From NCBI GenBank assembly GCA_017463125.1, contig JAFTPV010000003.1, positions 93,190 through 157,189 on the forward strand: a stretch of DNA of 64,000 bases, given 5' to 3'. A program made the position numbers and the translations under genes. The first letter of the stretch is position 1. Each line of letters opens with the position of its first letter. Below the pieces are notes generated by a model. The model saw only the letters and a list, made by a program, of their open reading frames with translations. It was not told the DNA's origin and did no database searches. Shown here one piece after another: positions 3,168-20,974 of the stretch. The DNA comes from Clostridia bacterium. GTDB lineage: Bacteria > Bacillota > Clostridia > Oscillospirales > CAG-272.

Positions 3168-3207
3168 CAAAAATCGGCAGTTTGAAGCTTCAAACCGCCG
3201 ATTTTTC
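3168..3207. terminator. bidirectional intrinsic terminator shared by the oxidoreductase gene and the cotJ operon
   Basis: About 17-bp near-perfect palindrome aaatcggcagtttgaag/cttcaaaccgccgattt, with T-runs on both strands. Confidence 0.7.
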
Positions 3208-3233: not shown

Positions 3234-3382
3234 TTAATCGCCCTGCAAAATCCTCATAGCTTCGCCGAAGCGCTGGAAGTGAACTACCTCGCGCTGACGG
3301 AGGAATTTTATGGCGTCGTTCACGTCAGGGTCGTCAGAAAGCCTAAGAATAGCGTCGTACATTGCTCTCGCCTTTTGCTCTG
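3234..3382 (-). pseudogene. cotJC: cotJC 3' fragment (manganese-catalase-family spore coat protein, C-terminal 47 codons plus crossover core)
   Basis: Translation gives EQKARAMYDAILRLSDDPDVNDAIKFLRQREVVHFQRFGEAMRILQGD. This matches the conserved CotJC/Mn-catalase C-terminus (B. subtilis ...EEKARATYQWLIDISDDPDLNDSLRFLREREIVH). There is no start codon or N-terminal domain here. Confidence 0.85.
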
Positions 3383-3478
3383 TTACTATCACGTATTCGC
3401 AACAAAATTGAGTCTTGCTAAAGTGCGAAAAATCCTTATATTTCAAGGGCTTTCGGCACTTTTGAAGTTGACGATTTT

Positions 3479-5038
3479 TCAAAAATTCCAGTGAATTTCG
3501 ATAGGTACGTTTCGTGTCCCCGGAATACGCTTTCCGACCATGATTTTGTCGATCAAAATCTCCACCATTTCCCGTGTCAGATGCTCTACCTTGACGTATT
3601 TTTCGATCAATTCTCGGCGGTTGTCACCCACTGCAATTTTGACGTTTATCTCTGCAATTTGCTTTTGACATTCCAGCACCTGTGATTCAAGACGTTCTTT
3701 TTGCGAAGTGAAGTCCTTTGACAGCTCGATGAAATCTGCCTCACAAATCAAGCCCTTCACCTTGTCAAGATAAAGGTCACGTACGCCTTTGGAAAACTGA
3801 TTGATCTTGCCTTGATAGGTGGCGATTTCGGCTTCAATTTCTTGCTTTTGCTCCAAAAGATCAGCGTTAAACTGTACCTTGCGTTCCAACTCATCCATAT
3901 CAAGATATTCGGCATTGAGTCGCCGCAGTTCGTCAATCACCATTCTTTCAAGTCTGTTGACCGAAATAAACGCACCCTCGCAAGCACCCTTAGCGTAGTG
4001 TCGATTGGGGCATTGCAGGAAATGTCTGCCACCCGATTTTGACGAGCGCATGACGTATCCGCAGGACGCGCACCGCACCTTTTTGGCAAAAAGACCAATC
4101 GTACCGACCTTAAACGGCTTGGCTCGCTCGGCGATCATCTTCTGCACTCTGTCCCACAGGGTGCGGTCAATGATCGGCTCGTGAGTGCCTTCCACCCGAA
4201 ACCATTGTTCCTTGGGGCGTGGGCGGTTTATACTCGTTTTATACGAAATACTCTCGTATTTTCCTTGCACGAGATTGCCGATGTAGGTCTCGTTGGTCAG
4301 CATATCCGAAATGGCGAAATACTTCCACAGAGTGCTGTTCTTGCTCGGCGGCAGACTGAAACGAAGCCCCTGCATCCGCTTGTACTCGGTGGGGTTGGGT
4401 ATCCCTCGGTCGTTGAGCATTCGCGCGATCGCCGTCTTGCCGTAGCCTTGTGAAAAGAGGGTAAAGACCTCTCGCACCACGGCGGCGGCTTCCTCGTCGA
4501 TGATCAGATGACCTTTCAGGTCGGGATCCTTCTTGTAGCCGTAGAGCGCAAAGGAGCCGATGTGAAAGCCGTTTTTGCGGCGGCTGTCCAACGCAGATTT
4601 GATGCTATCCGACATATCCTCCAGATACCACTCGTTGACAAGACCGTTGATCTGACGGCTTTTTTTGTTGCCTTTGTTGGCAGTGTCGGCATTGTCCACA
4701 ATGCTGACGAAACGGATACCCCAAATCGGAAACAGACCGTGTATGTACCTCTCCACCAATTCAAGCTCACGGGTAAATCTCGATTGCGTTTTGCAGAGGA
4801 TAATGTCAAATTTTCTCGCCTGCGCATCGGCAAGTAACCGCTTGAACTCGGGACGGTTGCGATCCGAGCCTGCGTAGTCGTCGTCGCTGTAAATGCCGTA
4901 AAGCTCCCACCCCATGCGGTCGGCGTAGTCACGGAGCATCGCCTTTTGATTCTGAATACTGCCCGAATCATCGGTGGCGTTCTGCTTGTTTTTGTCCTCC
5001 TCGGACAGTCTGCAATAGATTGCTACTTTTTCTCTCAT
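3479..5038 (-). CDS. large serine recombinase (SpoIVCA/TndX-like)
   Basis: 519 aa. The N-terminal resolvase catalytic domain is AIYCRLSEED...SIQNQ. It also has a recombinase domain, a Cys-rich zinc ribbon (CASCGY...CPNRH) and a C-terminal coiled coil. It has the same orientation as cotJ. Confidence 0.9.
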   Translation of the reverse strand: MREKVAIYCRLSEEDKNKQNATDDSGSIQNQKAMLRDYADRMGWELYGIYSDDDYAGSDRNRPEFKRLLADAQARKFDIILCKTQSRFTRELELVERYIHGLFPIWGIRFVSIVDNADTANKGNKKSRQINGLVNEWYLEDMSDSIKSALDSRRKNGFHIGSFALYGYKKDPDLKGHLIIDEEAAAVVREVFTLFSQGYGKTAIARMLNDRGIPNPTEYKRMQGLRFSLPPSKNSTLWKYFAISDMLTNETYIGNLVQGKYESISYKTSINRPRPKEQWFRVEGTHEPIIDRTLWDRVQKMIAERAKPFKVGTIGLFAKKVRCASCGYVMRSSKSGGRHFLQCPNRHYAKGACEGAFISVNRLERMVIDELRRLNAEYLDMDELERKVQFNADLLEQKQEIEAEIATYQGKINQFSKGVRDLYLDKVKGLICEADFIELSKDFTSQKERLESQVLECQKQIAEINVKIAVGDNRRELIEKYVKVEHLTREMVEILIDKIMVGKRIPGTRNVPIEIHWNF

Positions 5039-5064
5039 GTTCTTATCTCCTCCACGATAAGAAC
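5039..5064 (-). promoter_or_regulatory. perfect 9-bp hairpin or palindrome abutting the recombinase start codon, with the SD in its loop
   Basis: The mRNA sense strand reads GUUCUUAUC-GUGGAGGA-GAUAAGAAC-AUG. Confidence 0.4.
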
Positions 5065-5108
5065 AAGCTGTTTTCTTGCCTTTATTTTACCATAAAAACG
5101 GCTGTTTT

Positions 5109-5270
5109 TCATTGATTTGGAGAAAAATTTACACTTTTTCTGCGTTCTAACGTTGAGATCAGTTTTAACCATATATTCGTGTAATCCTCCTTCGTCAAAA
5201 TTCCGCTCTTAAAAACACTTGTACAAATTTCGTTTTTCATATCATTTCTTTCGGCTTTTTCTTTTGCCAT
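5109..5270 (-). CDS. small hypothetical protein (53 aa) immediately upstream of the recombinase
   Basis: Hand translation gives MAKEKAERNDMKNEICTSVFKSGILTKEDYTNIWLKLISTLERRKSVNFSPNQ. GGGAGGA lies 7 nt upstream of the ATG. The ORF is below the length cutoff of the ORF track. Confidence 0.45.
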   Translation of the reverse strand: MAKEKAERNDMKNEICTSVFKSGILTKEDYTNIWLKLISTLERRKSVNFSPNQ

Positions 5271-5333
5271 AGCATTCCTCCCTTCGTTTTTGAAATAAAT
5301 ATATGAAAAATAGCAAGTCCGCTATTACAGCGT

Positions 5334-5472
5334 AGCACCCCGCACCGAGCCATTTCCTTTGCTCGCCTTTCGACCAAGTATGTCAGGCGGTACTGTGTAC
5401 GATTTCAGTTATGGGTGCGCTCATATCGTGGCGGCACTGTCCATAACGCCTGTATCACTCTCGGCTGGGGCT
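5334..5472. ncRNA. candidate structured RNA or leader (nested helices), orientation unknown
   Basis: Nested complementary segments: 5334-5349 with 5460-5472, 5384-5389 with 5447-5452, and 5409-5414 with 5441-5446, plus a local hairpin at 5390-5400. It lies in a 330-nt stretch with no convincing ORF. Confidence 0.25.
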
Positions 5473-5560
5473 ATTCAATTGGTGACGGACTTTTTTGTCC
5501 CTTCACCTATGAAATACGCCCGAGATTGCGATTTTCTGCAAAAAAGTTAAAAATTTTTTT

Positions 5561-5616
5561 GAAAAATTTAAAAACGCACCTTGTCGGCGGTAAAAATCCG
5601 CTTTCGGAGTGCGTTT
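5561..5616 (-). terminator. intrinsic terminator downstream of the oxidoreductase gene
   Basis: Stem aaacgcac/gtgcgttt with inner stem gcgg/ccgc, followed on the minus strand by a U-rich tract. Confidence 0.55.
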
Positions 5617-5626
5617 GAGAGTATAT

Positions 5627-6925
5627 TTACATCTTTTTGTCATCGGTTGCGGGGTTGTCGATAAGCTGACCGTCTTCAGTAAAGCGTGAGCCGTGGCAGG
5701 GGCAATCCCAAGTGTGTTCAGCTTTATTGTATTTGAGGGCACAGCCGAGGTGTGGGCATCGGGGTGCAGTGGGGGTAAAAATACCTACCGTCGATTCAAA
5801 AGCGTTGACGGCAAGCTGTGGGCGCAGGACGGTGCGCGATGGATCGAAAACGGCGGCGTAGGGACTGTTTTTGCCTTGCACAAGGTCGCAGAGAATATCG
5901 GCGGCGACCATAGCGTTTGTCATACCCCACTTGTTAAAGCCCGTCGCCACAAACACATCGGACGTGGACTTGGCGTACTGTCCGATATAGGGAACGTCGT
6001 CCAGCGTTATACAGTCCTGCGTTGCCCATTTGCCGACGATCTCGGCGTTTTTGTAGTGCTTGCGAGAAAAATCTTCAAGCTCTTGCCAACAGCCGCCCTC
6101 CTTGCCTGTGCGGTGTCCGCCACCACCGAGGAGCAGAAGGTCGCCGTAGCTTCGGAAGGATAGCCCCGAATCCGATTCGTCTACGTACATACCGCCGACG
6201 TTCTGAGCGTTTTTGAGAGCAATGACATAGGAACGGTGCTGATAGAGCTTTAAGGAATACAATCCGTGCTTGTTGAGCATCGGTAAATGGGTTGCGATAA
6301 TCAACTTTTTGTAGGTGATCTCGTCACGGTTGGTTTTCGCCTTGTTTGGCATTACTTCTGTGACCTTGGTATGCTCGTAGATTGGCAGATCTTTTGTGAT
6401 AGTGTATAGAAATTTCAATGGGTGAAACTGCGCTTGATCTTTGACGCACACTGCACCTGCGACAGAAAACGGAAGCTCTTTTGCATCCGAAAACTCGGCT
6501 TTGACACCGATACGGTTGAGTGCAGCTACTTCTTTTTCAATCTTCTTACGGTCATTGAGAGAATACACGTAGTTATCCCGTGTTTCAAAATCGCAGTCGA
6601 TATTCTCGCAAAATTGCGCGTACTCCTGAATTGCCTTGCTCTGCGCCTCCGCATACAACCGTGCCTTGTCCTCGCCAAAACGGCGAGTCATTTTATCGTA
6701 GATCAAACCGTGCCCCAAAGTGATCTTCGCCGTTGTATTCTTTGTAATGCCTTCACAGATTTCGTCTGCCTCCACGAGCATACAATCCACGCCCGCATTT
6801 TTGAGCTTATAGGCGCATAAAATCCCCGCAATCCCGCCGCCGATGATCAAAACGTCGGTCTTTTTATTCCCACCAAGCGCGTCAAACCGTGGCTTTGACG
6901 ATGTTTTTAACCATATTGAGTCCAT
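5627..6925 (-). CDS. FAD-dependent oxidoreductase with C-terminal Rieske 2Fe-2S domain
   Basis: N-terminal dinucleotide fold DVLIIGGGIAGILCAYKL. The C-terminal Rieske motif is CPHLGC...CPCHGSRF. Confidence 0.75.
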   Translation of the reverse strand: MDSIWLKTSSKPRFDALGGNKKTDVLIIGGGIAGILCAYKLKNAGVDCMLVEADEICEGITKNTTAKITLGHGLIYDKMTRRFGEDKARLYAEAQSKAIQEYAQFCENIDCDFETRDNYVYSLNDRKKIEKEVAALNRIGVKAEFSDAKELPFSVAGAVCVKDQAQFHPLKFLYTITKDLPIYEHTKVTEVMPNKAKTNRDEITYKKLIIATHLPMLNKHGLYSLKLYQHRSYVIALKNAQNVGGMYVDESDSGLSFRSYGDLLLLGGGGHRTGKEGGCWQELEDFSRKHYKNAEIVGKWATQDCITLDDVPYIGQYAKSTSDVFVATGFNKWGMTNAMVAADILCDLVQGKNSPYAAVFDPSRTVLRPQLAVNAFESTVGIFTPTAPRCPHLGCALKYNKAEHTWDCPCHGSRFTEDGQLIDNPATDDKKM

Positions 6926-7000
6926 AATCTATCCTCCGAATCTTAATAGGATTAGTGTTTACACGGAAACGAATAATATGTGTTAATTCGAGAGCTATTA

Positions 7001-7029
7001 TTTACTTTTGCATAGAAATGTGGTATAAT
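7001..7029 (+). promoter_or_regulatory. candidate sigma-A type promoter for the EEP gene
   Basis: TTTACT, 17 nt, then TATAAT preceded by an extended TG (tggTATAAT). Confidence 0.4.
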
Positions 7030-7062
7030 AAAAAATATAAAAACATCAAAGGAAGTCATAAC

Positions 7063-7848
7063 ATGAGAATAGTTAACTGGAATATATCATGGAGCAATAA
7101 AACAGACAATAAAGCCGCTTATTTAAGAAGTTTAATTGAGGGAAAGTCGTTTGTAATTATCTTGCAAGAAGTAAAAATGTTTGCTTATGAGGCATTAAAG
7201 CAGTCCTTGGGAGATATAGCTAATATTGAGTATTCGTTGGACTATCGTATTCCCGGCAAATTTGATATAGATTCAAGAAAACTTGGTGTTGCTATATTAG
7301 TAAGCAAAGACTTGAAGATTACAAATTCACAAGCATTGAGCCGAGCTCTTATGCCGGATAGAACAATAATGGTTGACATAGAGTACAATAATGAACCTTT
7401 GCGAATTTTGGGATTACATTCGGTGACGGGCTGTCACCACTTAAAAGCGAAGGAAATACAGTTTTTCTCCTTTGCAGAGGCAGTGGATGAGTACAAACCC
7501 GATGTTGTAGGTATAGATGCCAATGAGCCTCAGTATGACCATTATGAAATTAGCAAAATGAAATTTTTTGATAATTATAATAAGGGAAATGGATGCAAAA
7601 CATTTTTTGAAACAATGCAAGCCAACGGTATGGCTGATTCATTTGTAAAAGACTATGATATAGAAAAATACATAGAGGGTGAGTACCTTACAACATCTCA
7701 TATAATCAAACGAGGACACAAAAAGGTACGTTACGATTTTTTGTTTGTCAATAATGAGAAAATTCGTAATTACCATTGTTCCTATGACTATGACAATGCA
7801 GTTGAGGCTGGTAGCGACCACGCCGCAGTAATAGTAGATGTGGAATAA
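7063..7848 (+). CDS. endonuclease/exonuclease/phosphatase (EEP) family protein
   Basis: Begins MRIVNWNISW, has LQEV (catalytic Glu context) and GIDANEP, and ends with the SDH motif. The start was moved to the ATG at 7063. The gene is very AT-rich. Confidence 0.6.
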   Translation: MRIVNWNISWSNKTDNKAAYLRSLIEGKSFVIILQEVKMFAYEALKQSLGDIANIEYSLDYRIPGKFDIDSRKLGVAILVSKDLKITNSQALSRALMPDRTIMVDIEYNNEPLRILGLHSVTGCHHLKAKEIQFFSFAEAVDEYKPDVVGIDANEPQYDHYEISKMKFFDNYNKGNGCKTFFETMQANGMADSFVKDYDIEKYIEGEYLTTSHIIKRGHKKVRYDFLFVNNEKIRNYHCSYDYDNAVEAGSDHAAVIVDVE

Positions 7849-8065
7849 TCAATAACAAATAAAGGGGCTGAGCTTCTTGCTTTACTAAAATGCAGTTGAC
7901 TCATCCTTTTTATTTTGAAAAAAGTTTCGGCTAATTTATATAAATTCTTAAAAACAGCCGAAAAATGCTTTTAATTCTTTGCTTTTCGTATTTTTATACC
8001 TTCGACCATATATTCTCATTCGTTTTGGGAAATAATAACGGTGAATACAAAAAACGGAGGTATAT

Positions 8066-8728
8066 ATGTTCAAACACGAAAAAATGTTATTTCATCCCGT
8101 AGAGGTAGAGAGACCCAATCCGCAGTATGCCGTTTTGCTTCAAGAGCAGCTTGGCGGTGGGAACGGCGAGCTCAAGGCGGCAATGCAGTATATGTCGCAG
8201 AGTTTTCGCATCAAGGATCCCGAGATCAAGGATCTTTTCCTCGATATTGCCGCGGAGGAGCTGGGACACATGGAAATGGTGGCGCAGACCATCAATCTGC
8301 TCAACGGTCACGATGTGGATGCAACCAAGGTGCAGGCGGGCGAGGTGCAGACGCACGTTCTGCTTGGTCTCAATCCCGGACTGATCAATTCCTCGGGGTA
8401 TTCTTGGACGGCGGATTACGTTACCGTAACGGGCGACCTGTGCGCCGACTTGCTCTCTAATATCGCGTCCGAGCAGAGAGCCAAGGTGGTTTACGAATAT
8501 CTCTACCGTCAGATCGAGGACAAGAAGGTACGCGAAACTATAGACTTTCTTCTCAACCGCGAGGAAGCGCACAACCAGATGTTCCGTGATGCCTTTAACA
8601 AGGTACAGGAAACAGGCTCGAACCGCGATTTTGGCACGACGAAAGCGGCGAAGATGTATTTCTCTATGTCAAACCCCGGACCGAATACGTTTGCGACAGG
8701 TGAGAGTCACGCACCGTCGTTTAAGTAA
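8066..8728 (+). CDS. manganese catalase family protein (YdbD-like)
   Basis: MFKHEKMLFHPVEV...GGNGELKAAMQYMSQSF...AAEELGHMEMV...ASEQRAKVVYE...LNREEAHNQMF are the di-Mn ligand motifs of the family. GGAGG RBS present. Confidence 0.8.
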   Translation: MFKHEKMLFHPVEVERPNPQYAVLLQEQLGGGNGELKAAMQYMSQSFRIKDPEIKDLFLDIAAEELGHMEMVAQTINLLNGHDVDATKVQAGEVQTHVLLGLNPGLINSSGYSWTADYVTVTGDLCADLLSNIASEQRAKVVYEYLYRQIEDKKVRETIDFLLNREEAHNQMFRDAFNKVQETGSNRDFGTTKAAKMYFSMSNPGPNTFATGESHAPSFK

Positions 8729-8743
8729 CAGTAACGATGATAC

Positions 8744-8790
8744 GGCAGAGGCGGCGGACAAATCTTGTCCGCCGCCTCTGCCGTTTTTTA
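8744..8790 (+). terminator. intrinsic terminator after the Mn catalase gene
   Basis: 19-bp stem cggcagaggcggcggacaa/ttgtccgccgcctctgccg followed by TTTTTT. Confidence 0.85.
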
Positions 8791-8947
8791 CCCCACTTTT
8801 TTAAACTCGGGTAAGAAACCACATGCTGTTTATTCTGAAAGCCTTGTTTTGCAAGGAATTGAAAGCTTTTATGGGTGTCGTAAAAAAATATCGGAAAAAT
8901 GCAAAAAAGCCGATACTGATTTTAGGCTTATTTTTGATTTCCGGACA

Positions 8948-9142
8948 TTTGAGAAAACAGCTTGTCCTTATCGATTTTTTAATAAATTAAGCTAAATTTT
9001 GGTAAAATTAAGTGTTGTTGCTCTTATATGATATCAGGATGGCAATTTTTGAGCGTTTTGCCGAAGTGTGAAAAATCCTTGTATTTCAAGGCTTTTCGGC
9101 GTTTTTTTGATAAAGGTTGCTCTTGCAGTATTGCAGCATCTG
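8948..9142 (+). repeat. internal diverged copy of the element's right arm, ending in the TCTG core
   Basis: Aligns to 17110..17305 in direct orientation. My hand alignment gives about 14 substitutions over about 185 nt. The sequences diverge completely immediately after TCTG (9139..9142). Confidence 0.85.
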
Positions 9143-9262
9143 ACATATCTTCTATGAAGTCGGTACGCTTAAATTGTGGATTGGAATCACAGAAAAACGG
9201 AGGGGATAAACTCGCGTTAATGAGGATAAAATGACAAATAATTAAAAATTACCCTGGATAAC

Positions 9263-9291
9263 TTGACGTTATCTTAAAAACGTGCTATAAT
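9263..9291 (+). promoter_or_regulatory. strong sigma-A type promoter for the ATPase gene
   Basis: TTGACG, 17 nt, then TGcTATAAT (extended -10). Confidence 0.6.
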
Positions 9292-9320
9292 GTTGATGAA
9301 CCAAGAAAGGAGTACCTACG

Positions 9321-10562
9321 ATGAACAAAAAGATTTACACAAGACAGTATTATATTGATAAAATTCGTGGCTTTTATAACAGTGACCTTATTAAAGTAGT
9401 CACAGGTATCCGCCGTTGCGGTAAATCCTGCTTCCTTTTGTCTGTGATGGAAGATCTAAAATCCCAGGGCGTTAAGGAAAAAGACATTTTGTACCTCAAC
9501 CTCGATAAGCGCGGTTATCGTAAGATCAAAACGCCGGACGCACTTGAAGCTGCAGTTGAAACGCTAATTACCGATGACGATTATAAATATCTATTCATTG
9601 ACGAGGTGCAAAACGTAGACGGTTTTGAAGAGGTCATCAACGGATTCAGGGAAGACGGAAACTTTTCCATTTTTATCACCGGCTCCAATTCCTACCTTCT
9701 GAGCGGTGAGCTTACGACAAAGCTGACCGGTCGTTATATTGAAATCGAGATGTTTACCTTGAATTTTCGTGAATATCTTGAAATGAAATCATTTTTCGGC
9801 AATGAGATAAAATCCAATAAGACAGAAGAATTTAACGAGTATATCCGTTTTGGTGGTTTCCCTAAGGTACTTGAGTTTGACGACCCCAATGACAAAGATA
9901 CCTATATTTCGGAGGTTATTTCGCAAATTCTCGAAAAAGATGTTGTAAAGCACAAAAAGATTCGCAACCGTTCGGTATTCGATAAGGTTATGACCTACGT
10001 GATCAATAACTTTGGCGCAACGGTGAGCCTTTCAAGCATTGCGGAATATTTTGAAAAGCAAGAGCATATCAGTATTCGAACCGAGACGCTCAATAATTAT
10101 TTGCAGATTCTTGAAAACGCGAAGATCATATACAGATGTCCGCGCTTCGATGTGAAATCAAAAAAGTCCTTGCGCGGAGAGCAGAAATATTATCTTGCAG
10201 ATCTCGGTATCTATTTCTCTCGCAATGTGGACGCGCGTATCAACTATGGTCCCGTGCTTGAAAATATCGTATATACCTATCTGTCTGCAAAGAATTATAA
10301 GATCAGCGTCGGTCGCATCGGCAAGCTGGAGTGCGATTTTATTACCCGTGTAAGCGACGAGTACAGATATATCCAAGTGGCAATGACGATTATGAGTCCC
10401 GAGACCGAGGAACGCGAATACAAGCCTTTCACTATGATACGGGATAATTACCCCAAATATCTGCTTACCATCGATCCACTGCTCCAAAAGCGTGATGGTG
10501 TGATACACAAAAATATTATTGAGTTCATTGCAAATGATGAAAGCTTGTCATCAGTGGTTTGA
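9321..10562 (+). CDS. AAA-type ATPase with C-terminal DUF4143-like domain
   Basis: Walker A GIRRCGKS and Walker B LFIDEVQ, followed by about 200 aa typical of the ATP-binding protein family AAA_14/DUF4143. Confidence 0.7.
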   Translation: MNKKIYTRQYYIDKIRGFYNSDLIKVVTGIRRCGKSCFLLSVMEDLKSQGVKEKDILYLNLDKRGYRKIKTPDALEAAVETLITDDDYKYLFIDEVQNVDGFEEVINGFREDGNFSIFITGSNSYLLSGELTTKLTGRYIEIEMFTLNFREYLEMKSFFGNEIKSNKTEEFNEYIRFGGFPKVLEFDDPNDKDTYISEVISQILEKDVVKHKKIRNRSVFDKVMTYVINNFGATVSLSSIAEYFEKQEHISIRTETLNNYLQILENAKIIYRCPRFDVKSKKSLRGEQKYYLADLGIYFSRNVDARINYGPVLENIVYTYLSAKNYKISVGRIGKLECDFITRVSDEYRYIQVAMTIMSPETEEREYKPFTMIRDNYPKYLLTIDPLLQKRDGVIHKNIIEFIANDESLSSVV

Positions 10563-10568
10563 TAAAAC

Positions 10569-10682
10569 AAAAAAGACCTCCGAAGAGGTCAATTTTGCAC
10601 ACACTGTGCGATCGGACAATCCGACGATTTGAGAATTCTTTTATTTGAACTCGTAGTGTAATTTATAAGGGATATAAACTAC
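10569..10682 (-). ncRNA. tracrRNA
   Basis: The minus-strand sequence UCCCUUAUAAAUUACACUACGAGUUCAAA pairs with the CRISPR repeat GUUUGAGAGUAGUGUAAUUUUAUAAGGGA, with the usual internal bulge. Three hairpins follow (TCGGA/TCCGA, GCACA/TGUGC, GACCUC-UUCG-GAGGUC) and then UUUUUU. A consensus promoter lies upstream. Confidence 0.8.
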
Positions 10683-10688
10683 ACTTGT

Positions 10689-10717
10689 ATTATAATACAA
10701 AAAGGAGTAATTGTCAA
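10689..10717 (-). promoter_or_regulatory. consensus sigma-A promoter driving the tracrRNA, overlapping the cas9 translation initiation region
   Basis: On the minus strand TTGACA (10717..10712), 17 nt, then TATAAT (10694..10689). The cas9 ATG is at 10719. Confidence 0.65.
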
Positions 10718-10718
10718 T

Positions 10719-13700
10719 ATGAAAAAACAAAATTATTTCATTGGACTTGATATAGGAACTGATTCCGTTGGTTATGCGGTGACAGACGAGGAATATAATT
10801 TGTGCAAATTTAAGGGCGAACCTATGTGGGGAGTGACCCTTTTCGATGAAGCGCAGCTTTCCGTGGAGCGCAGAGGCTTCCGTACAGCTCGTAGGCGTTT
10901 AGATCGCAGACAGCAACGTGTTCAATTGATACAAGAGCTATTTGCACAAGAAATCAACAAGGTTGACAAAGGTTTTTTTATAAGAATAAAGGAAAGCTAT
11001 CTCTATCCCCAAAAAGAGGAGGACAAGATACGTTTATTTGATACGTATGAAATGCAAAAAGAATACTTAACGAAGTATCCGACGATCCATCACCTTATCG
11101 TGGAATTGATGGAAAATGCAGTTCCACACGACGTAAGACTGGTGTATCTTGCCTGTGCCTGGTTGGTAGCTCACAGGGGGCACTTCCTGAGCGAGGTGGA
11201 CAAGCATAATATTGCTGCGGTTACCGATTTCAAAACTGTTTATGAAAAGCTTGTAAGCTATATTACACGTGATGAATATACTTTGCCATGGAAAACAGAT
11301 GTGGATCTCGAAGTAATTCAAAATGCTTTGAAGGCTAAATCAGGAATTCAAAGGAAGTCAAAAGCATTAACGGAAGCATTTTTTGGTACAGTGAAGGCTC
11401 CGAAGATCGTTAATGAGCATTATGAATATAATTATGAATGTATTATTAAATTACTGTGCGGCGGCAAGGTTAATTTAAGTGATTTGTTCGCAAAGGATGA
11501 ATATGCCGAACTTGAAGAAAAGGCTATTGCTTTGAATATGGACGATGAAAAGCTTGTAGCTATTATGCAAAGTATCGGTGACGATGCCGAGCTGATCTCT
11601 GCGTTGAAGGAGATTTACGACTGGTCCGTATTGGTTGACGTATTGAAGGGGCAGGATACCATTTCCAAAGCCAAGGTTGCAGTTTACGAGCAGCACAAGC
11701 GCGATTTGACCACCTTGAAATATTTTGTGAAAAAATATGCACCGAGTAAATATAACGAAATTTTTCGATCTGACAAGACAAATAACAACTACGTAGCCTA
11801 CATAGGAAAGAATCAAACGGGGAATGACAGTCGGAAGGTAAAGAAGGCAGGCAAAAAAGAAGAACTTTGCAAGTATGTTCTTTCTGTCGTTAAAAGCATT
11901 CTTCCGGACGAAAGTGATTTGGAAAAATACAGCGATATGGTCACTCGATTGGAAACGTACGACTTTCTTCCCAAGCAGGTGGACGGGGACAACCGAGTGA
12001 TTCCGTATCAGCTATATTGGTATGAGCTGAACATAATTCTTGAAAATGCCGAGCGTTACATCCCGTTTATTTCCGAAGTTGATGAAGACGGCATTTCGGG
12101 TAAAAATAAAATACTGTCGGTATTTGAATTCAGAGTTCCTTATTACGTAGGACCGCTGAAAGGAAAAAGCAATTGCAGATACAATTATTGGATGGTCAGA
12201 AAAGCAGAGGGAAGGATTTTTCCGTGGAAGTTTAATAGAATGGTCGATCTTGACGAAAGCGAAAATGCCTTTATTGCAAGAATGACAAATTCTTGTACGT
12301 ACCTGCCAGGGGAAGACGTGCTTCCCAAGAACTCGCTTGTCTACTGCTCGTTTGAGGTGCTGAATGAGATAAACAATATCAGAATCAATGGTAACGAAAT
12401 TCCTGTTGTTTTAAAACAAGGAATATACAACGATTTGTTTATGCGAAACAGCAAGGTTACGCCGAAGAAAATTTGCGAATACCTCATTTCCAACAATTAT
12501 ATGTGTGAATCCGATGTCTTGTCTGGAATTGATATCACGGTAAAATCATCACTCAAGCCGTTTTTGCAGTTTAAAAATCTTGTAAACAGGAAGATGCTGA
12601 CCTATACCGATGTTGAGAAAATTATCCACAGAGCCACCTATTCCGAGGATAAAGCAAGATTTAAAAAATGGCTCAGTGAACAGTATTCCGACCTTCCCGA
12701 GAGCGAAATCACTTATATTTCCGGTTTGAAGTTCAAGGATTTTGGAAGGCTATCCCGAAAGCTTTTGTGCGGTATTGAGGGCGTGAATACGCAAACAGGC
12801 GAAGTTTATTCCTCAATCATTCGCGCTATGTGGGAAACCAATTATAACCTGATGCAACTTTTATCCGACAACTTTAATTTCGAGAAAAGCATAGACGAAA
12901 TCGTTAGAGAATATTATGATGTAAATCCCAAAAGCATTTCGGATAGGCTTGACGAAATGTACGTTTCCAATGCAGTCAAACGTCCTATTATCCGTACTCT
13001 TGATATTTTAAAGGATGTTGTTAAGGTGCAAGGATGCGCGCCCGAAAGAATCTTTATTGAAATGGCGCGCGGTACAAGTGAGGGGCAAAAAGGCAAGCGA
13101 ACGGTTACACGTCTCAAACAGATTCAGGAACTGTACGAAAAAGTCAAAGATGAGGATGTTCGTGAACTGCAAAGCGTTCTTGATGAATGGGGTGATGCGG
13201 CACATAATAAGCTGCAAAGCGATAAGATTTTCCTGTATTTTATTCAGCTTGGTAAGTGCTTGTATACCGAAAAAAGCATTGATTTGGAATCGGTTATTTC
13301 CGGCGACGGTACCTATAATATTGAACACATATATCCCCGTAGCTTTGTAAAAGACGATAGCATTATCAACAACAAGATTCTCGTCGATTCAAAAGTGAAC
13401 GGAGATAAGAGCGACAAGTATCCGATTGATCCTGATATTCAGGAAAAAATGCGTGGATATTGGATTCGCTTGAATAAGATTGGCTTGATCAGTGATGAAA
13501 AATTCAAACGCCTGATAAGAACGACAGGCTTTACAGAAGAAGAAAGATTTGAATTTATCAACCGTCAGCTTGTTGAAACAAGACAATCAACCAAAGCCGT
13601 GACGGCATTGTTGAAAGAACTGTATCCCAATACGGAAATCGTTTACGTAAAGGCGGGGCTGGTTTCGGAATTCAGACAGACGTTCGATATTTTGAAATCC

Positions 13701-14807
13701 AGAGCAGTGAACGATCTTCATCACGCAAAGGATGCGTATTTGAATATCGTTGTTGGTAACGTATGGCATTCCAAATTCAGCAGACCGTTTTGGAATGCAG
13801 ATAAAAATTACAGTATCAGACCTGAAATTGTGTTTACTCGCTCCGTTATATGCGGTGGCAAAACGGTTTGGAACGGCGGTTCCGATAAAGATCGCGTAAT
13901 CAAGATTGCAAGAAAAAACACAGCGCATATGACGAAATATTCCTTCTGCCGCAAGGGGGGATTCTTTGACCAGATGCCAATTTCGGCATCAAAAGGATTG
14001 ATTCCTCGCAAGAAGGATATGCCTACGGAAATTTACGGTGGATATAACAAGTCAACTGCTTCCTTCTTTGCTTTGGTAAGATATAAGGTTGCGAAAAAGC
14101 AGGATATTATGGTAATGCCCGTAGAACTGTTATATGCAGATCATTTTCTTGGTAACGGTACGTTTGCCGAGGAATATGCAAGAAAGACCATCGGAGAGAT
14201 TATCAATAAGGAAGTGGTTGAAGTGGAATTTCTTTTGAACAAGCGTATTCTGAAGGTTAATACAATGCTATCCTTGAACGGATTGAGGGTATGCATAACA
14301 GGAAAGGCGAGCGGCGGAAAGGTTATCGGAGTTTCTGTTATGGATTCTTTCAAAACGTCTGCCGATAACGAGGTGTATATTAAAAAGCTGGAATCCTTCA
14401 AAAATAAGAAAAAGAAGAATTCCGGTATCGTTTACAATGAATTGCACGATGGCATCAATAAAAACAAAAATCTTGAAATATATGACTGCTATATCGAAAA
14501 GCTACAGCAAGCACCGTATAGTTACCGTCCCGCTAATCCTGCCAATACGCTACTAACAGGCAGGGAAAAATTCATTACTTTAACTTGTGAAAATCAAGTG
14601 GACGTATTATTGGACGTTTTAGGTTTGTTTGGTAGAATACAAAGTGCGGATCTGACTCCAATTGGTGGAGTTGCAAAAGCAGGCGTCGCAACACTGTCAT
14701 CAATGCTTTCCAACTGGAAAAAGAATTATACCGACATTCGTATAATTGACCAATCAGCCTCGGGACTTTTTGAAACGGTTTCCGATAATCTTTTGGAATT
14801 GTTATGA
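10719..14807 (+). CDS. cas9: type II CRISPR endonuclease Cas9 (1362 aa)
   Basis: RuvC-I IGLDIGTDSVGYAV, an Arg-rich bridge helix RRGFRTARRRLDRRQQR, an HNH region YNIEHIYPRS...NKILVDSKVNGDKSD, and RuvC-III HHAKDAYLN. Confidence 0.95.
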   Translation: MKKQNYFIGLDIGTDSVGYAVTDEEYNLCKFKGEPMWGVTLFDEAQLSVERRGFRTARRRLDRRQQRVQLIQELFAQEINKVDKGFFIRIKESYLYPQKEEDKIRLFDTYEMQKEYLTKYPTIHHLIVELMENAVPHDVRLVYLACAWLVAHRGHFLSEVDKHNIAAVTDFKTVYEKLVSYITRDEYTLPWKTDVDLEVIQNALKAKSGIQRKSKALTEAFFGTVKAPKIVNEHYEYNYECIIKLLCGGKVNLSDLFAKDEYAELEEKAIALNMDDEKLVAIMQSIGDDAELISALKEIYDWSVLVDVLKGQDTISKAKVAVYEQHKRDLTTLKYFVKKYAPSKYNEIFRSDKTNNNYVAYIGKNQTGNDSRKVKKAGKKEELCKYVLSVVKSILPDESDLEKYSDMVTRLETYDFLPKQVDGDNRVIPYQLYWYELNIILENAERYIPFISEVDEDGISGKNKILSVFEFRVPYYVGPLKGKSNCRYNYWMVRKAEGRIFPWKFNRMVDLDESENAFIARMTNSCTYLPGEDVLPKNSLVYCSFEVLNEINNIRINGNEIPVVLKQGIYNDLFMRNSKVTPKKICEYLISNNYMCESDVLSGIDITVKSSLKPFLQFKNLVNRKMLTYTDVEKIIHRATYSEDKARFKKWLSEQYSDLPESEITYISGLKFKDFGRLSRKLLCGIEGVNTQTGEVYSSIIRAMWETNYNLMQLLSDNFNFEKSIDEIVREYYDVNPKSISDRLDEMYVSNAVKRPIIRTLDILKDVVKVQGCAPERIFIEMARGTSEGQKGKRTVTRLKQIQELYEKVKDEDVRELQSVLDEWGDAAHNKLQSDKIFLYFIQLGKCLYTEKSIDLESVISGDGTYNIEHIYPRSFVKDDSIINNKILVDSKVNGDKSDKYPIDPDIQEKMRGYWIRLNKIGLISDEKFKRLIRTTGFTEEERFEFINRQLVETRQSTKAVTALLKELYPNTEIVYVKAGLVSEFRQTFDILKSRAVNDLHHAKDAYLNIVVGNVWHSKFSRPFWNADKNYSIRPEIVFTRSVICGGKTVWNGGSDKDRVIKIARKNTAHMTKYSFCRKGGFFDQMPISASKGLIPRKKDMPTEIYGGYNKSTASFFALVRYKVAKKQDIMVMPVELLYADHFLGNGTFAEEYARKTIGEIINKEVVEVEFLLNKRILKVNTMLSLNGLRVCITGKASGGKVIGVSVMDSFKTSADNEVYIKKLESFKNKKKKNSGIVYNELHDGINKNKNLEIYDCYIEKLQQAPYSYRPANPANTLLTGREKFITLTCENQVDVLLDVLGLFGRIQSADLTPIGGVAKAGVATLSSMLSNWKKNYTDIRIIDQSASGLFETVSDNLLELL

Positions 14808-15673
14808 GCTGGAGGACGATCGTTATAACGTCACGCTGCAAGCTGGATTATAAGATGGGCTTTATGGTGGTGCGCGCCGAGGAAACAAAAAAGATTTTTT
14901 TGGATGAGATTGCCGTATTGCTCATCGAGAATCCTGCCGTATCACTGACCGGTTGTTTGTTGGAGGTCTTAACAGAAAAGAAGATACGGGTGATTTTTTG
15001 TGATGCAAAGCGAAATCCCAACGCCGAGCTTGTGCCATATTTCAATTCTTATGATTGCTCCCGCAAAATCAAGGTTCAAATTGCTTGGTCAGATGATTTG
15101 AAGGGAGCAGTCTGGGCGGATATCGTTGCGGAGAAAATACGAAAGCAAGCGGATTTTCTTGAAGAACTTGAAAAAATTAATGAAGCGGGTCTTTTACGCT
15201 CCTATTTATATCAAATAGAACCTCACGATATCACGAATCGAGAGGGACACGCCGCAAAGGTTTATTTCAACGCGCTTTTTGGAATGGATTTTACAAGAAG
15301 TGAGGAGAATATCACTAACGCCGCACTGAATTATGGGTACAGCATTATTTTGTCGGCATTCAATCGTGAGATCGTAGCTCACGGGTATCTGACGCAGCTT
15401 GGGATTTTTCACGATAATATGTTCAATCATTTTAATCTGAGCTGTGATTTGATGGAGCCGTTTCGTATTTTGGTTGATCGTAAGGTGAAGGAAATGAATT
15501 TTACCGATTTTACAAGCGAGGAAAAACATATACTTGTAAACGTTCTGAATAAAACCGTTATGATCAATCAAACCAAGCAAACGGTGTTAAATGCAGTTAA
15601 ATATTATACCAGAAGCGTTTTCGACGCATTAAACGAGGGCGATCTTTCGCTTATACAATTTTATTCATTATGA
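14804..15673 (+). CDS. cas1: CRISPR-associated endonuclease Cas1 (type II)
   Basis: Motifs NREGHAAKVYF, NAALNYGYSI and FHDN...CDLMEPFR. The start overlaps the cas9 stop (ATGA). Confidence 0.95.
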   Translation: MSWRTIVITSRCKLDYKMGFMVVRAEETKKIFLDEIAVLLIENPAVSLTGCLLEVLTEKKIRVIFCDAKRNPNAELVPYFNSYDCSRKIKVQIAWSDDLKGAVWADIVAEKIRKQADFLEELEKINEAGLLRSYLYQIEPHDITNREGHAAKVYFNALFGMDFTRSEENITNAALNYGYSIILSAFNREIVAHGYLTQLGIFHDNMFNHFNLSCDLMEPFRILVDRKVKEMNFTDFTSEEKHILVNVLNKTVMINQTKQTVLNAVKYYTRSVFDALNEGDLSLIQFYSL

Positions 15674-15990
15674 GTTACAGATTTATAAGAATGTTGGTAT
15701 TTTTTGATCTTCCCACCGAAACGCTTGAAAACAAGCGCGAGTATAGAAAATTTCACAAACTACTCATTAAGAACGGCTTTTTGATGATGCAGGAATCCGT
15801 GTATTGCCGTATGCTGATTACGCCAAGTGCGGGTAAGGCGGTTTTGGACGTGATACGCAAAAACCGCCCCGCAGACGGCATTGTGCAAGTTATGACCGTG
15901 ACTGAAAAGCAATTTGCTGGGATGGAATATATTACGGGAGAGCATCACAGCGAGGTGATAGAAAGTGACGAGAGGTTGATTATATTATGA
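15670..15990 (+). CDS. cas2: CRISPR-associated endoribonuclease Cas2
   Basis: 106 aa. Begins MLVFFDLPTE and contains QESVY. It overlaps the cas1 stop and the csn2 start by 4 nt each. Confidence 0.9.
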   Translation: MSYRFIRMLVFFDLPTETLENKREYRKFHKLLIKNGFLMMQESVYCRMLITPSAGKAVLDVIRKNRPADGIVQVMTVTEKQFAGMEYITGEHHSEVIESDERLIIL

Positions 15991-16652
15991 AACTGATATA
16001 TAAGAATATGGGGCATGTTTTGCGTTTTGATAAAGGATATATCAATGAGCTCGTTGTTGAAAACAGAAAAATGTTTCTTGACCTCGTAAGCACTATGATA
16101 CGTCAGGCAGAGGGCGAACACGGAGACTGTATATTATCAATAGCGGAAAAACCGGTGGAGTTTAGCAAATGTGCGGACGTTACCGTACAGTTTGCGCCGT
16201 TTCAGCTCAATCGCAAAAGCTTACTGACAAAGCTTTGCTCCGCATTAGAGCAAAGGGCTCTGCTTGCGGAAAATTACGTAAAAACAGGAGAATTGGTTAG
16301 TGAAATAGAGCGATATATTCTGTATCTTGCCGAGGATCTTCCGTTTGAAATCGATTGTCAAAAGCTTACGATAGGCCCAATTATCAAGGCAGTATCACCT
16401 GAGATCGAGGAAGCCGATAAGGGTACATTGGAGAAAATATTTGCATATATGGAGCTTGTGCGTGAGTTGGATCGTGATCGCTTGTTTATTATGATCAATA
16501 TGAGAACGTATTTTTCGGATGAAGAAATGGAACGATTTGCGGAAAGTGTCTGCTTACATGATTTCAAGGTTCTTTTGCTGGAAAGCTCATCTCTTTCAAA
16601 ATTAAAACACTCAAAAAGATATACGGTGGATGTTGACTTGTGCGAATTTTGA
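15987..16652 (+). CDS. csn2: Csn2 (type II-A signature adaptation protein)
   Basis: 221 aa, in the canonical position after cas2 and directly before the leader and array. The size and acidic, helical character fit short Csn2. No motif-level proof without a search. Confidence 0.7.
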   Translation: MKLIYKNMGHVLRFDKGYINELVVENRKMFLDLVSTMIRQAEGEHGDCILSIAEKPVEFSKCADVTVQFAPFQLNRKSLLTKLCSALEQRALLAENYVKTGELVSEIERYILYLAEDLPFEIDCQKLTIGPIIKAVSPEIEEADKGTLEKIFAYMELVRELDRDRLFIMINMRTYFSDEEMERFAESVCLHDFKVLLLESSSLSKLKHSKRYTVDVDLCEF

Positions 16653-16653
16653 C

Positions 16654-16682
16654 TTGATTTTTCTTGTTAATTGTGATATAAT
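16654..16682 (+). promoter_or_regulatory. pre-crRNA promoter in the CRISPR leader
   Basis: TTGATT, 17 nt, then TGaTATAAT (extended -10), about 70 nt upstream of repeat 1. Confidence 0.6.
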
Positions 16683-16750
16683 ATAAGCTACCACTCCCTG
16701 TACATTGCTCTCTGCAATTCGTAGTATTGTTGCTCAAATGTTGATTTGAG

Positions 16751-17050
16751 GTTTGAGAGTAGTGTAATTTTATAAGGGACTCAAACCAGAAGAAAGTGAG
16801 TTACAATCACCAAAAGGTTTGAGAGTAGTGTAATTTTATAAGGGACTCAAACTTTTGCGTTAAAATCTTCAACGCTACCACCGTTTGAGAGTAGTGTAAT
16901 TTTATAAGGGACTCAAACTCTTAGCATAACGAAAAGAAAGAACAGTATGTTTGAGAGTAGTGTAATTTTATAAGGGACTCAAACTTTTTTGCGCCTTGCT
17001 ATTATTGCACCATCGTTTGAGAGTAGTGTAATTTTATAAGGGACTACATT
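16751..17050 (+). CRISPR. CRISPR array with 5 repeats and 4 spacers
   Basis: The 36-nt repeat GTTTGAGAGTAGTGTAATTTTATAAGGGACTCAAAC occurs at 16751, 16817, 16883, 16949 and 17015. The last copy is degenerate at its 3' end (..GGGACTACATT). Spacers are exactly 30 nt. The leader ends in ATTTGAG. Confidence 0.97.
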
Positions 17051-17073
17051 TTCTTGACAATTCCAAAATAAAA

Positions 17074-17106
17074 AACGATGCACCGTACTTTGGGGCATCG
17101 TTTTTC
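17074..17106 (+). terminator. intrinsic terminator after the CRISPR array
   Basis: Stem acgatgc/gcatcgt followed by TTTTT. Confidence 0.6.
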
Positions 17107-17109
17107 TAT

Positions 17110-17305
17110 ATTTGGAGAAACAGCTTGTCCTTATCGATTTTTTAATAAATTAAGCTAAATTTTGGTAAAATTACGTGTTGTTGCTCTTATATGATAGCAG
17201 GGTGGCGATTTTTGAGCGTTTTGCCGAAGTGCGAAAAATCCTTGTATTTCAAGGGGTTTCGGCGATTTTTCAATAAAGGTTGCATTTGCGTTATTGCAGC
17301 ATCTG
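17110..17305 (+). repeat. right arm of the element (attachment-site arm) ending in the TCTG core at the cotJC junction
   Basis: Direct-repeat partner of 8948..9142. It contains GGTTGC 18 nt from the core, mirrored by GCAAC 16 nt from the core in the left arm. Confidence 0.85.
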
Positions 17306-17708
17306 CCGCGAGGTCCTCGTGAATATCGGCAAGGGGATCACCTTTGGAGGCTATTGCCATAGCGTCAAAGGGCACGCCTGCCGCCGAGCAGGGATAGATA
17401 CCTACGCCGTGATCAACGTAGTATTTATCAAAGCCCGCTGCTTTTATTTCATCATGGGTAAGGTTTCTGGTAAGCTGATGGACGATAGAGGCCACGATCT
17501 CCATGTGCCCAAGCTCCTCACTGCCTACGTCCGTTAATATACCTATCACTCTGCCATCGGGCATATTATATCTTTGGTTGAGGTAACGGGTAGCCGCAGC
17601 GAGCTCGCCGTCAGGTCCTCCAAGTGCTGTGATTATCATACCTGCAAGCTTGGGGTTGGGGGTTTCTATCTTTACAGGATATTGCAATTTTTTCTCGTAT
17701 ATCCACAT
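17302..17708 (-). pseudogene. cotJC: cotJC 5' fragment (N-terminal 135 codons of the manganese-catalase-family spore coat protein)
   Basis: MWIYEKKLQYPVKIETPNPKLAGMIITALGGPDGELAAATRYLNQRY...SEELGHMEIV...DIHEDLAA is near-identical in pattern to B. subtilis and C. difficile CotJC. After the junction the frame reads element DNA for 38 codons, to a stop at 17187. Confidence 0.85.
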
Positions 17709-17709
17709 A

Positions 17710-18322: not shown

Positions 18323-18437
18323 TTGTTCTGTCCTTTTGTTTTTTGTGGTGCTATACGCCACTACAACCATTATATGCCTAACTCATAAAGCTGTGAATAT
18401 TTTTCGACAATATGCAACTGTAACGGCAAAAAAGCAC

Positions 18438-20919: not shown

Positions 20920-20974
20920 TTTTTAATCCTCCGAAATTTTCGTATTTTTTATTTAATAATGTAGTGTGCAGAAA

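Follow-up and report, generated by a model that had tools for sequence, protein, structure and literature searches.

How does a bacterial genome come to carry a coat gene in two pieces, and can the pieces be joined again? The question is raised by cotJC in a 64,000-nucleotide stretch of DNA from a Clostridia bacterium (GenBank assembly GCA_017463125.1, contig JAFTPV010000003.1, positions 93,190 to 157,189), referred to as the window in the following, where a 13.9-kb island with a gene for a large serine recombinase (LSR) lies within the reading frame. The reconstitution of sporulation genes by LSRs is established for sigK, spsM, spoVFB, spoVR, gerE and yabG. For the locus described here, we consider it fairly probable that the island is a composite, built on an element of a cotJC-specific LSR clade, and that it would be excised in the mother cell. 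All coordinates are those of the whole window, in which the cotJ genes are read on the minus strand; loci from other genomes are cited by our handles (L001 and so on).

The split gene and its recombinase

The operon begins with cotJA (18002..18322, minus strand; Pfam CotJA; likely start ATG at 18322) and cotJB (17710..18063, minus; Pfam CotJB, E=1e-27), followed on the same strand by the 5' part of cotJC (17306..17708), which comprises codons 1-134 and the first base of codon 135 and matches Pfam Mn_catalase positions 1-151. The match extends up to ...PLADIHEDLAA, where the frame runs into unrelated sequence. The C-terminus, EQKARAMY...ILQGD*, is encoded on the same strand at 3378..3234 (codons 136-183 and the stop codon), collinear with intact orthologues, and is followed by an inverted repeat resembling an intrinsic terminator, a hairpin with a T-run (3169..3206, minus). 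A first-pass annotation, made from the sequence letters, had placed the operon start at 18322, the break after codon 135 and the missing C-terminus in front of a terminator, and all three placements hold.

Both junctions carry the same 4-nt core, CAGA (TCTG on the plus strand). At 17302..17305, the junction between cotJC-N and the element has the attR-type layout B-CAGA-P'; at 3379..3382, junction comparison gives the attL-type layout P-CAGA-B' between the element and cotJC-C. Joined in silico at this core, the halves yield an in-frame CotJC of 183 residues, which reproduces the earlier prediction. The rejoined attB would read CACGAGGACCTCGCGGCAGAGCAAAAGGCGAGAGC and the corresponding attP junction GCGAATACGTGATAGTAACAGATGCTGCAATAACGC. 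The reconstructed attP is an imperfect dyad, GGTTGC-18-TCTG-16-GCAAC, exactly as first described, and the sites have the 4 nt and no long core in common, as expected for LSR att sites.

The comparison with relatives that the annotation had proposed points the same way. Uninterrupted orthologues of 183-185 residues, up to 93% identical, cover 99-100% of the rejoined CotJC and run ...HEDLAAEQKARAMYD... through the join position without a gap. On the DNA level, an empty locus (L001; gene order DUF4416, cotJA, cotJB, cotJC) aligns to 18121..17302 and to 3382..3238, and the two alignments overlap by exactly 4 nt. Both halves in the window are intact, with neither a frameshift nor a stop, and no further cotJC or LSR gene was found in the 64 kb. 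Judged by these comparisons, cotJC is split by an LSR element, not by chance and not by the decay of paralogues. The latter possibility, which the annotation had named as one that could overturn its reading, would need to draw on an intact Mn-catalase gene within the island; it is excluded because this protein is only 33-34% identical to CotJC and because the fragments are exactly collinear with single-copy orthologues.

The LSR gene (3479..5038, minus; 519 aa; Pfam Resolvase, Recombinase, Zn_ribbon_recom and DUF4368) lies at the element's edge beside cotJC-C and has the orientation of cotJ. Its stop codon is 96 nt from the core, in agreement with the roughly 100 nt given initially. PF00239, PF07508 and PF13408 are all present, the nucleophile motif YCRLS with the catalytic serine aligns to TnpX and TP901-1, and dN/dS is 0.02-0.06 at dS 0.6-1.0; the complete domain set, the intact motif and this purifying selection suggest a functional recombinase. 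The left end of the element (3383..3478, minus), delimited by repeats and junction comparison, consists of the P arm GTTGCGAATACGTGATAGTAA and a 52-nt hairpin repeat (3412-3463). The outer right end (17110..17301, minus), a repeat that is kept in relatives, consists of the P' arm TGCTGCAATAACGCAAATGCAAC, a small hairpin, a P'-like half-site at about +105 and GGACAAGCTGTTT at about +175.

A cotJC-directed recombinase clade and its regulatory module

With the LSR as query, a scan across species, one genome for each, yielded at least 562 relatives, the best 80 of which were studied more closely. Twenty of these are 92-98% identical and come from ruminant-gut Oscillospiraceae and Clostridia metagenome-assembled genomes; the other 60, 73-78% identical and called the 75% clade here, include the cultured Roseburia faecis, Blautia difficilis, Diplocloster modestus, Clostridium fessum and Anaerotignum lactatifermentans as well as Laedolimicola, Pseudoflavonifractor and Flintibacter. 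Of the 76 loci with sufficient flanking sequence, from Oscillospiraceae and Lachnospiraceae, 72 have a cotJC fragment, broken at codons 133-136, directly at the 3' end of the LSR gene, and the junction structure is repeated across more than 70 independent assemblies, among them a complete isolate genome. No cotJC fragment was detectable past the LSR in four loci with adequate flank (L026, L041, L051, L073), which may be internal members of tandem arrays or users of alternative sites. Deposited GenBank phages contained no LSR more than 43% identical, and an exact look-up of the window's LSR in an assembly collection returned no record.

These loci also locate the crossover. In hosts with GCC or GCG as codon 135, CCGA or CGGA is found at the N-side junction and CAGA still at the C-side one (L016, L058), which places the crossover at GA. 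From this, we infer that integration is a conservative recombination at GA within the codons of Ala135 and Glu136. In the 75% clade, attP is a near-perfect palindrome (GTTGTTCTTATATGATTGCA..GA..TGCAATCATATAAGAACAAC); the window's P arm is identical to that of at least ten other loci. Insertions are found in both polarities: in the 55 type-1 loci, which resemble the window, the LSR gene has cotJC-C downstream, and in 16 type-2 loci the LSR gene faces cotJC-N on the opposite strand. Type-2 loci have the same arm beside the LSR gene, with the central dinucleotide flipped relative to cotJC, and by the established LSR mechanism this flip accounts for their inverted insertion.

The clade moves horizontally, since near-identical element ends lie beside different host arms in six genera (identical in L057, L060, L061, L062 and L079, a few bases off in L068) and since LSR identity, at 92-98%, is far above the identity of the host CotJC, at 57-78%. 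Complete type-1 elements measure 5.7-13.9 kb and carry MatE and Trk transporters, a two-component system, Macro and ADP-ribosylglycohydrolase proteins, GmrSD- and Schlafen-like proteins, a signal peptidase and a leucine-rich repeat (LRR) protein; in L058, the cargo includes a MobA/MobL relaxase with RepA_N. Type-2 elements, from Lachnospiraceae isolates, encode TcpC, a VirB4-like AAA_10 ATPase, a lysozyme/NlpC-P60 hydrolase, a topoisomerase and σ70-region-4/HTH regulators, by gene content a conjugation module of the Tcp/Tn916 type. Judged by such cargo, the relatives range from cargo islands through mobilizable islands to conjugative elements.

A second insertion hotspot within cotJC was observed at about codons 62-65, in the SEELGH metal-ligand motif (L056, L066, L068 and L084:15499-17254). 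The LSRs that use it are of a separate lineage (23-25% identical); the one in L084 lies within a phage-like region (M78 peptidase, HTH, Phage_rep_org_N), and cotJC is in three pieces there.

Upstream of the LSR gene, almost every member of the clade has an open reading frame (ORF) of about 50 codons, with the motif C-SVFKSG...FT-KWIELIN-LEK, at a distance of 70-100 nt. In the window, this ORF encodes 53 residues (5109..5270, minus) and is moderately constrained, with dN/dS of 0.25-0.55; its conservation within the clade makes it a candidate recombination directionality factor (RDF). Three conserved features stand out from otherwise unalignable sequence in 31 aligned upstream regions. Before the small ORF lies AATAG-cGGACTTGCc-TTTCATATAgT (ATA-N17-CATATA), which by motif match is a σE-type promoter and in the window reads AATAG-N-CATATATT (ATA-N17-CATA; 5298..5326, minus). 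Between the small ORF and the LSR gene lies TGACAA-N17-TG-TATAAT, and at the start of the LSR gene AAACAGCTTGT and, behind it, a hairpin that has the Shine-Dalgarno sequence inside and reaches up to the start codon. In the window, alignment and folds place these at 5038..5112 (minus) as a σA-type promoter with an extended -10 box (5112..5084) and a 10-bp hairpin around the ribosome-binding site (RBS) of the LSR gene (5065..5038). The hairpin, assessed by per-sequence folds, recurs with varied stems (UUAUC/GAUAA, UUGCC/GGCAA, UCGUC/GAACGA) at a mean z-score of -2.6 in 26 distinct sequences.

In Clostridioides difficile, σE and σK promoters have a common -10 box and differ at -35, where ATA denotes σE and AC denotes σK, and operons of the cotJB-cotD type are σK-dependent (PMC3789822). 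The σE-type motif ATA-N16-18-CATAnnnT precedes the small ORF in 53 of 67 distinct regions, as against 4.6% of shuffles, and always lies 236-320 nt (mostly 260-290) before the LSR start; the copy in the window is the only match in 64 kb, with 0.18 expected. A promoter of the σK type (AC-N16/17-CATAnnnT) would fit only 2 of the 67, where AC has the right spacing, and there is no TTGACA-like -35 for σA, and both assignments were rejected. The cotJ operons of the hosts show the reverse pattern: σK-type motifs lie upstream in 19 of 26 loci, including the window (ACAGCTTTATGAGTTAGGCATATAAT), and a σE-type motif in one. The window's copy, AC-N16-CATATAAT (18369..18394, minus), was matched to the consensus of PMC3789822 and puts the split gene into a cotJA-cotJB-cotJC operon with the type of promoter expected of a mother-cell gene.

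The arrangement of promoters and small ORF is that of skinCd in C. difficile, where σA drives the recombinase CD1231, which vegetative cells contain, and where CD1234, a 72-aa orphan RDF without database similarity, is driven by σE and SpoIIID and confines excision to the mother cell (PMC5025042). On account of this common layout, we infer σE-timed, RDF-dependent excision for the cotJC element as well.

A composite island with CRISPR-Cas cargo

The first-pass annotation had described a single intervening element. Its coordinates stand, but it lacked the CRISPR-Cas locus, the island's own Mn-catalase paralogue and an internal duplicate of the right end (8947-9142). This duplicate and the relatives of the cassette that it bounds point instead to a resident element onto which a cassette has accreted.

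The resident unit (3379-9142, 5.8 kb) contains, besides the LSR gene and the 53-aa ORF, an FAD-dependent oxidoreductase with a C-terminal Rieske domain (5627..6925, minus; Pfam) that travels with the window's LSR subclade, a weak Pfam match to the endonuclease/exonuclease/phosphatase (EEP) family (6955..7848, plus) and the intact Mn-catalase paralogue of the CotJC family (8066..8728, plus; 220 aa; Pfam Mn_catalase, E=1e-56). The first gene of the cassette (9143-17301, 8.2 kb), after the degenerate arm described below, encodes an AAA_14/DUF4143 ATPase of the PADLOC candidate defence family PDC-S01 (9321..10562, plus; Pfam; PADLOC E=7e-143), which stays beside cas9 in relatives. The cassette continues with a tracrRNA anti-repeat divergent from cas9 (10652..10680, minus), located by local alignment to the reverse-complemented repeat, the genes cas9-cas1-cas2-csn2 of type II-A (10719..16652, plus; Pfam Cas9_REC/PI/HNH/RuvC/BH, Cas1, Cas2, Csn2) and an array found by its 36-nt repeats, with four spacers of 30 nt and a degenerate terminal repeat (16751..17050, plus). 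By its parts (cas9, cas1, cas2, csn2, array and anti-repeat), the type II-A system is complete. All four spacers gave 0 exact matches in viral contigs, and Rfam gave no match over the element. G+C content is 39.7% in the cassette, 44.8% in the resident unit and about 46% in the flanks. Pfam detected no relaxase or conjugation genes among the ORFs of the window's element, and no capsid, tail, terminase or lysis genes in it or in the surveyed complete elements; a prophage was rejected on these grounds.

The cassette is bounded by two copies of a 196-nt element end, at 17301..17110 and, including the CAGA core, at 9142..8947. The internal copy (8947..9138, minus) is 91% identical to the outer one, and its P' arm is identical to that of L011 and L020. 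It adjoins a degenerate att site (9139..9170, minus), recognized by site comparison, with the core at 9142..9139 and, before the core, a putatively decaying B-like arm, ACCGACTTCATAGAAGATATGT. Single elements with the Mn-catalase, the oxidoreductase and the LSR (L020, L015, L016, L011, L013) match 3379-9142 and end in a right end like the internal copy of the window. The cassette itself has homology in L084, L086/87 and L088 (99% identical), continuous over about 8947-17045 apart from cas-gene deletions in L084 and L088, and its left neighbours are Mn-catalase remnants (L084), restriction-modification genes with YjbR (L086/87) and RNase III (L088). Since the bounds stay constant while the neighbours differ, the cassette is a discrete unit, and the island, on this comparative evidence, is a composite of a resident element and an accreted CRISPR/defence cassette. 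A simple tandem dimer of whole elements was rejected, as an LSR is absent from the cassette and its limits are unchanged where it is found on other residents.

Among the loci with related Cas9, the internal site has a constant P' half and TCTG core and a divergent second arm. In the window and in L088, this arm is similar to a cotJC B arm of the Lachnospiraceae type; it is more degenerate elsewhere, and it probably represents a half-site in decay. Its descent from an LSR C-terminus was considered and set aside as the weaker match, as hand alignment gave 8/21 matches to P arms versus 16/21 to the cotJC arm of the L066 type. Recombination through the internal site would release the resident unit alone, with the predicted circle junction GCGAATACGTGATAGTAACAGATGCTGCAATACTGC. 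In L084, the LSR is 97% and cas9 91% identical to those of the window, whereas the N-fragment of the host CotJC (residues 62-136) is 57% identical, from which we conclude that the composite transfers as one unit through its outer sites. L084 has lost cas1 and cas2, and cas9 is frameshifted in L088.

Other loci show further states. In L017, CRISPR-Cas is ordinary cargo of a single element, and in L005 elements are truly stacked in tandem, with a pair of internal attP-like junctions and two LSRs that differ from each other. In the latter (L005:1900-7650), the order is an E1-type LSR (97%), an intact attP-like junction at 1962, an oxidoreductase, an attP-like junction at 3940 and a 55%-identical LSR that abuts cotJC-C, so that a more distant LSR lineage targets the same codon. 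Candidate routes to stacking are the action of the recombinase on two attR-type sites and a Campbell-type crossover within the 196-nt homology.

Several smaller observations concern the element ends and the cargo. A second P'-like half-site, CTGCTATCATATAAGAGCAAC, lies about +105 inside each right end (17175-17198 and 9012-9035; also in L078, L016, L017 and L020) and agrees with the arm of the palindromic attP in the 75% clade; it could be what is left of an older attP, or else a site for accessory binding. The 52-nt hairpin repeat occurs in direct orientation at 3412-3463, 9055-9106 and 17218-17269 and nowhere else in the window; its score is that of a weak terminator, and it may shield the element against read-through from cotJ. 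The motif GGACAAGCTGTTT is found at 17118-17136 and 8952-8973, is conserved about 175 nt inside right ends (also in L016, L017, L020, L058 and L078) and has an inverted copy at 5055-5076, in the 5' untranslated region of the LSR gene just past the σA -10 box. Either a regulator box or an accessory site is conceivable. The motif seems to resemble the SpoIIID consensus of Bacillus subtilis. A SpoIIID-box reading of the GGACAAGC motifs is a tentative lead, their fit to KRTAACARK of C. difficile being partial (PMC5025042). The region 5' of the Mn-catalase paralogue has a CATATATT box (8005-8015) and no clear -35.

An RNase III paralogue with two double-stranded-RNA-binding domains (dsRBDs) lies beside the right end in L020 (6172-7179) and L088 (263-1240), and in L088 it directly adjoins the type II-A cassette; RNase III is the host factor for tracrRNA:crRNA processing. 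Outside the island, at 20766-21035, short GC-rich tandem repeats with periods of 21, 12 and 18 (CGGGAGCTGC... units) lie apparently between or within ORFs near 20.4-22 kb.

Proposed mother-cell excision, its alternatives and known systems

In the mechanism that we propose, the LSR would be made at a low constitutive level from its σA-type promoter, damped by the hairpin that sequesters the RBS, and the 53-aa protein would be supplied as directionality factor from the σE-type mother-cell promoter. Early in sporulation, the outer attR and attL would recombine in the mother cell only, the island would leave as a circle and the 183-aa cotJC would be restored, whereupon the σK-type cotJ promoter would fire. 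The forespore chromosome would keep the island, so that CRISPR-Cas and the other cargo would stay in the germ line. Such an excision is plausible, and several findings weigh against it. The 53-aa ORF belongs to no family in Pfam, NCBIfam or PADLOC and has no detectable homology to known RDFs. The promoters are assigned by motif, and the -10 boxes of sporulation sigma factors are so alike that the assignment to a compartment is tentative. An empty site from the same species was not recovered, and 0 matches were obtained for the window's exact attP junction and for the palindromic-clade attP in metagenome contigs, as well as for a degenerate attP pattern in viral contigs. Members of a mobile clade that includes integrative and conjugative elements (ICEs) would need an RDF for transfer regardless of sporulation, and the element's own Mn-catalase could lessen the need to restore cotJC. 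Finally, the cassette of L086/L087 (1200-18950), with an array of about 2.5 kb, abuts cotJC-N and cotJB; on its other side there are restriction-modification genes and a second PDC-S01-like ATPase, with neither an LSR nor cotJC-C within 8 kb. In appearance, this is a defence island left stranded and fixed, with cotJC permanently broken, and loss of cotJC would thus be tolerated in some hosts.

Several of these points would suit a mobile element without a developmental role, a possible reading to which we assign a clearly lower probability. Here, cotJC would merely be a safe harbour, a highly conserved site in a gene that is dispensable and silent during growth; carriers would live without CotJC, the small ORF would be an RDF or regulator for horizontal transfer, and the σE-like promoter would answer to something else. 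The near-identical elements in different genera, the Tcp-type ICEs and the relaxase-bearing island among the relatives, the stranded cassette of L086/87, the second insertions in some cotJC N-fragments, the excised form's absence from the metagenome and viral contigs searched and the Mn-catalase paralogue all agree with it. It accounts poorly, however, for a small-ORF promoter that lacks a σA-type -35 and has ATA 16-18 nt from the CATA box in 79% of distinct sequences, next to a textbook σA promoter for the LSR, and for a two-promoter layout matching that of skinCd, where excision is mother-cell-restricted. Moreover, the cotJC halves in the window are intact, and the rebuilt protein is 93% identical to an uninterrupted orthologue. 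That the window's copy is an immobilised relic, unable to excise owing to drifted outer attR/attP arms or interference from the internal site, with cotJC permanently split, seems improbable. It is true that attP is a near-perfect palindrome in the 75% clade and that its arms form an imperfect dyad in the window's subclade, that the island has one more att-like site inside it, and that decayed versions exist elsewhere (L084 without cas1 and cas2, L088 with its cas9 frameshift); against this, the LSR, the small ORF, both cores and both arms are intact, the P arm is the same as in at least ten other loci, the LSR is under strong constraint (dN/dS 0.02-0.06), and the occurrence of the composite in the different host of L084 implies recent transfer as a unit. 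Most improbable of all is an artefact, be it mis-assembly or remnants of separate genes: beyond the general risk of metagenome assembly, nothing speaks for it, whereas the junctions recur in the more than 70 assemblies, the halves are exactly complementary (codons 1-135 and 136-183) around a common 4-nt core, and the window has no other cotJC or LSR; to the extent that sequence evidence reaches, this reading is refuted.

Mother-cell excision of a composite island is therefore the reading that we retain, and it modifies the initial proposal of a developmentally excised or domesticated element. The LSR element, the precise restoration at the core, the recombinase at the edge as in skin, the clade-wide σE-type promoter with an RDF-like ORF and the σK-type cotJ promoters are in its favour; a lone domesticated relic it is not, given a mobile clade with conjugative elements, and the excision itself stays a prediction, no attP junction having been found in public contigs. 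More speculatively, and doubtful in our own estimate, the CRISPR-Cas/PDC-S01 block might be an LSR-less hitchhiker that moves between cotJC islands by recombinase exchange at attR-type sites, in an integron- or SCC-like accretion on an LSR; the σE-timed RDF would then remove the whole stack from the mother-cell chromosome, leaving defence cargo to the germ line only and rebuilding a coat gene in the soma.

If the retained reading is true, the reconstitution of genes on a developmental schedule would extend beyond a few Bacilli and C. difficile to hundreds of gut Clostridia species and would be a common process, used alike by conjugative elements, mobilizable islands and defence cassettes. A large LSR clade whose att sites are simple, and in part perfectly palindromic, would gain a candidate RDF family, useful for recombinase toolkits; there would also be a natural demonstration that a flipped central dinucleotide reverses insertion polarity, and a case in which a sporulation-linked island spreads CRISPR-Cas9 among its cargo. 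Cultures exist for several carriers: Roseburia faecis JCM 17581 (L067), Diplocloster modestus ASD4241 (L062), Blautia difficilis M29 (L064), Clostridium fessum SNUG30386 (L079), Anaerotignum lactatifermentans DSM 14214 (L037), Pseudoflavonifractor sp. 524-17 (L058) and Flintibacter muris DSM 110149 (L081).

Among known systems, skinCd in sigK (LSR CD1231, RDF CD1234) is alike in its edge LSR beside the 3' gene fragment, its σA-type recombinase promoter and its small orphan protein behind a σE-type promoter, and excision would restore a mother-cell gene in both (PMC5025042). Here, however, the target is the coat/enzyme gene cotJC and not the regulator gene sigK, the candidate RDF lies immediately upstream of the LSR, the cargo comprises CRISPR-Cas/defence and metabolic genes, the clade is horizontally mobile, and excision is predicted. 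The gin element in gerE of Bacillus cereus (LSR GirC) is likewise a small non-prophage element in a late sporulation gene with an LSR and a tiny RDF without conserved motifs, GirX, of 42 aa (PMC5595907). It differs in host class, target gene and LSR lineage and is not known with CRISPR-Cas or stacked composites. SPβ in spsM of B. subtilis (SprA/SprB) combines horizontal transfer with a mother-cell excision that rebuilds a spore-envelope gene, as would the cotJC element, and SprA is among the PDB sequence matches of the LSR (9dxh). SPβ is a 134-kb phage, unlike the cargo islands, mobilizable islands and conjugative elements found here, whose closest GenBank phage LSR is less than 43% identical.

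SCCmec-type islands (Ccr) also have tandem cargo units at one site, split by att-like repeats (as at the internal site of the window and in L005), and defence systems as cargo. CcrB is the top NCBIfam match of the LSR, with 112 bits against a cut-off of 900; the enzyme is thus not a Ccr, and the target lies inside a coding sequence that would be restored on excision, with a candidate RDF and a sporulation promoter. Tn4451/Tn5397 (TnpX/TndX) are close in other respects: TnpX is the closest solved catalytic domain (2mhc, E=7e-15), the C-terminus is DUF4368, and type-2 relatives carry Tcp/Tn916-like conjugation genes. They differ from the cotJC elements in the strict single-site specificity of the latter, and the element in the window has no relaxase or conjugation genes.

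Contrary to the first-pass annotation, which knew of no precedent for cotJC as a target, the gene has already been named as an interrupted sporulation gene: it is listed by Abe et al. 2013, as cited in bioRxiv 10.1101/2021.11.22.469490, and a skin-like element in cotJC of Laceyella sacchari is mentioned in bioRxiv 10.1101/2022.02.25.481979. These are recombinase-bearing elements in the same gene, given as one-line mentions in Bacilli, with no att sites, clade, regulatory module or CRISPR cargo. Full-text literature searches turned up no account of the present clade, of its att sites and regulatory module, or of CRISPR cargo. Compared with these systems, what is new here is a cotJC-specific LSR clade that spans cargo, mobilizable and conjugative elements and extends a known principle, together with a conserved candidate RDF behind a σE-type promoter, an insertion polarity apparently set by the central dinucleotide and the probable tandem accretion of a CRISPR-Cas9/PDC-S01 cassette.

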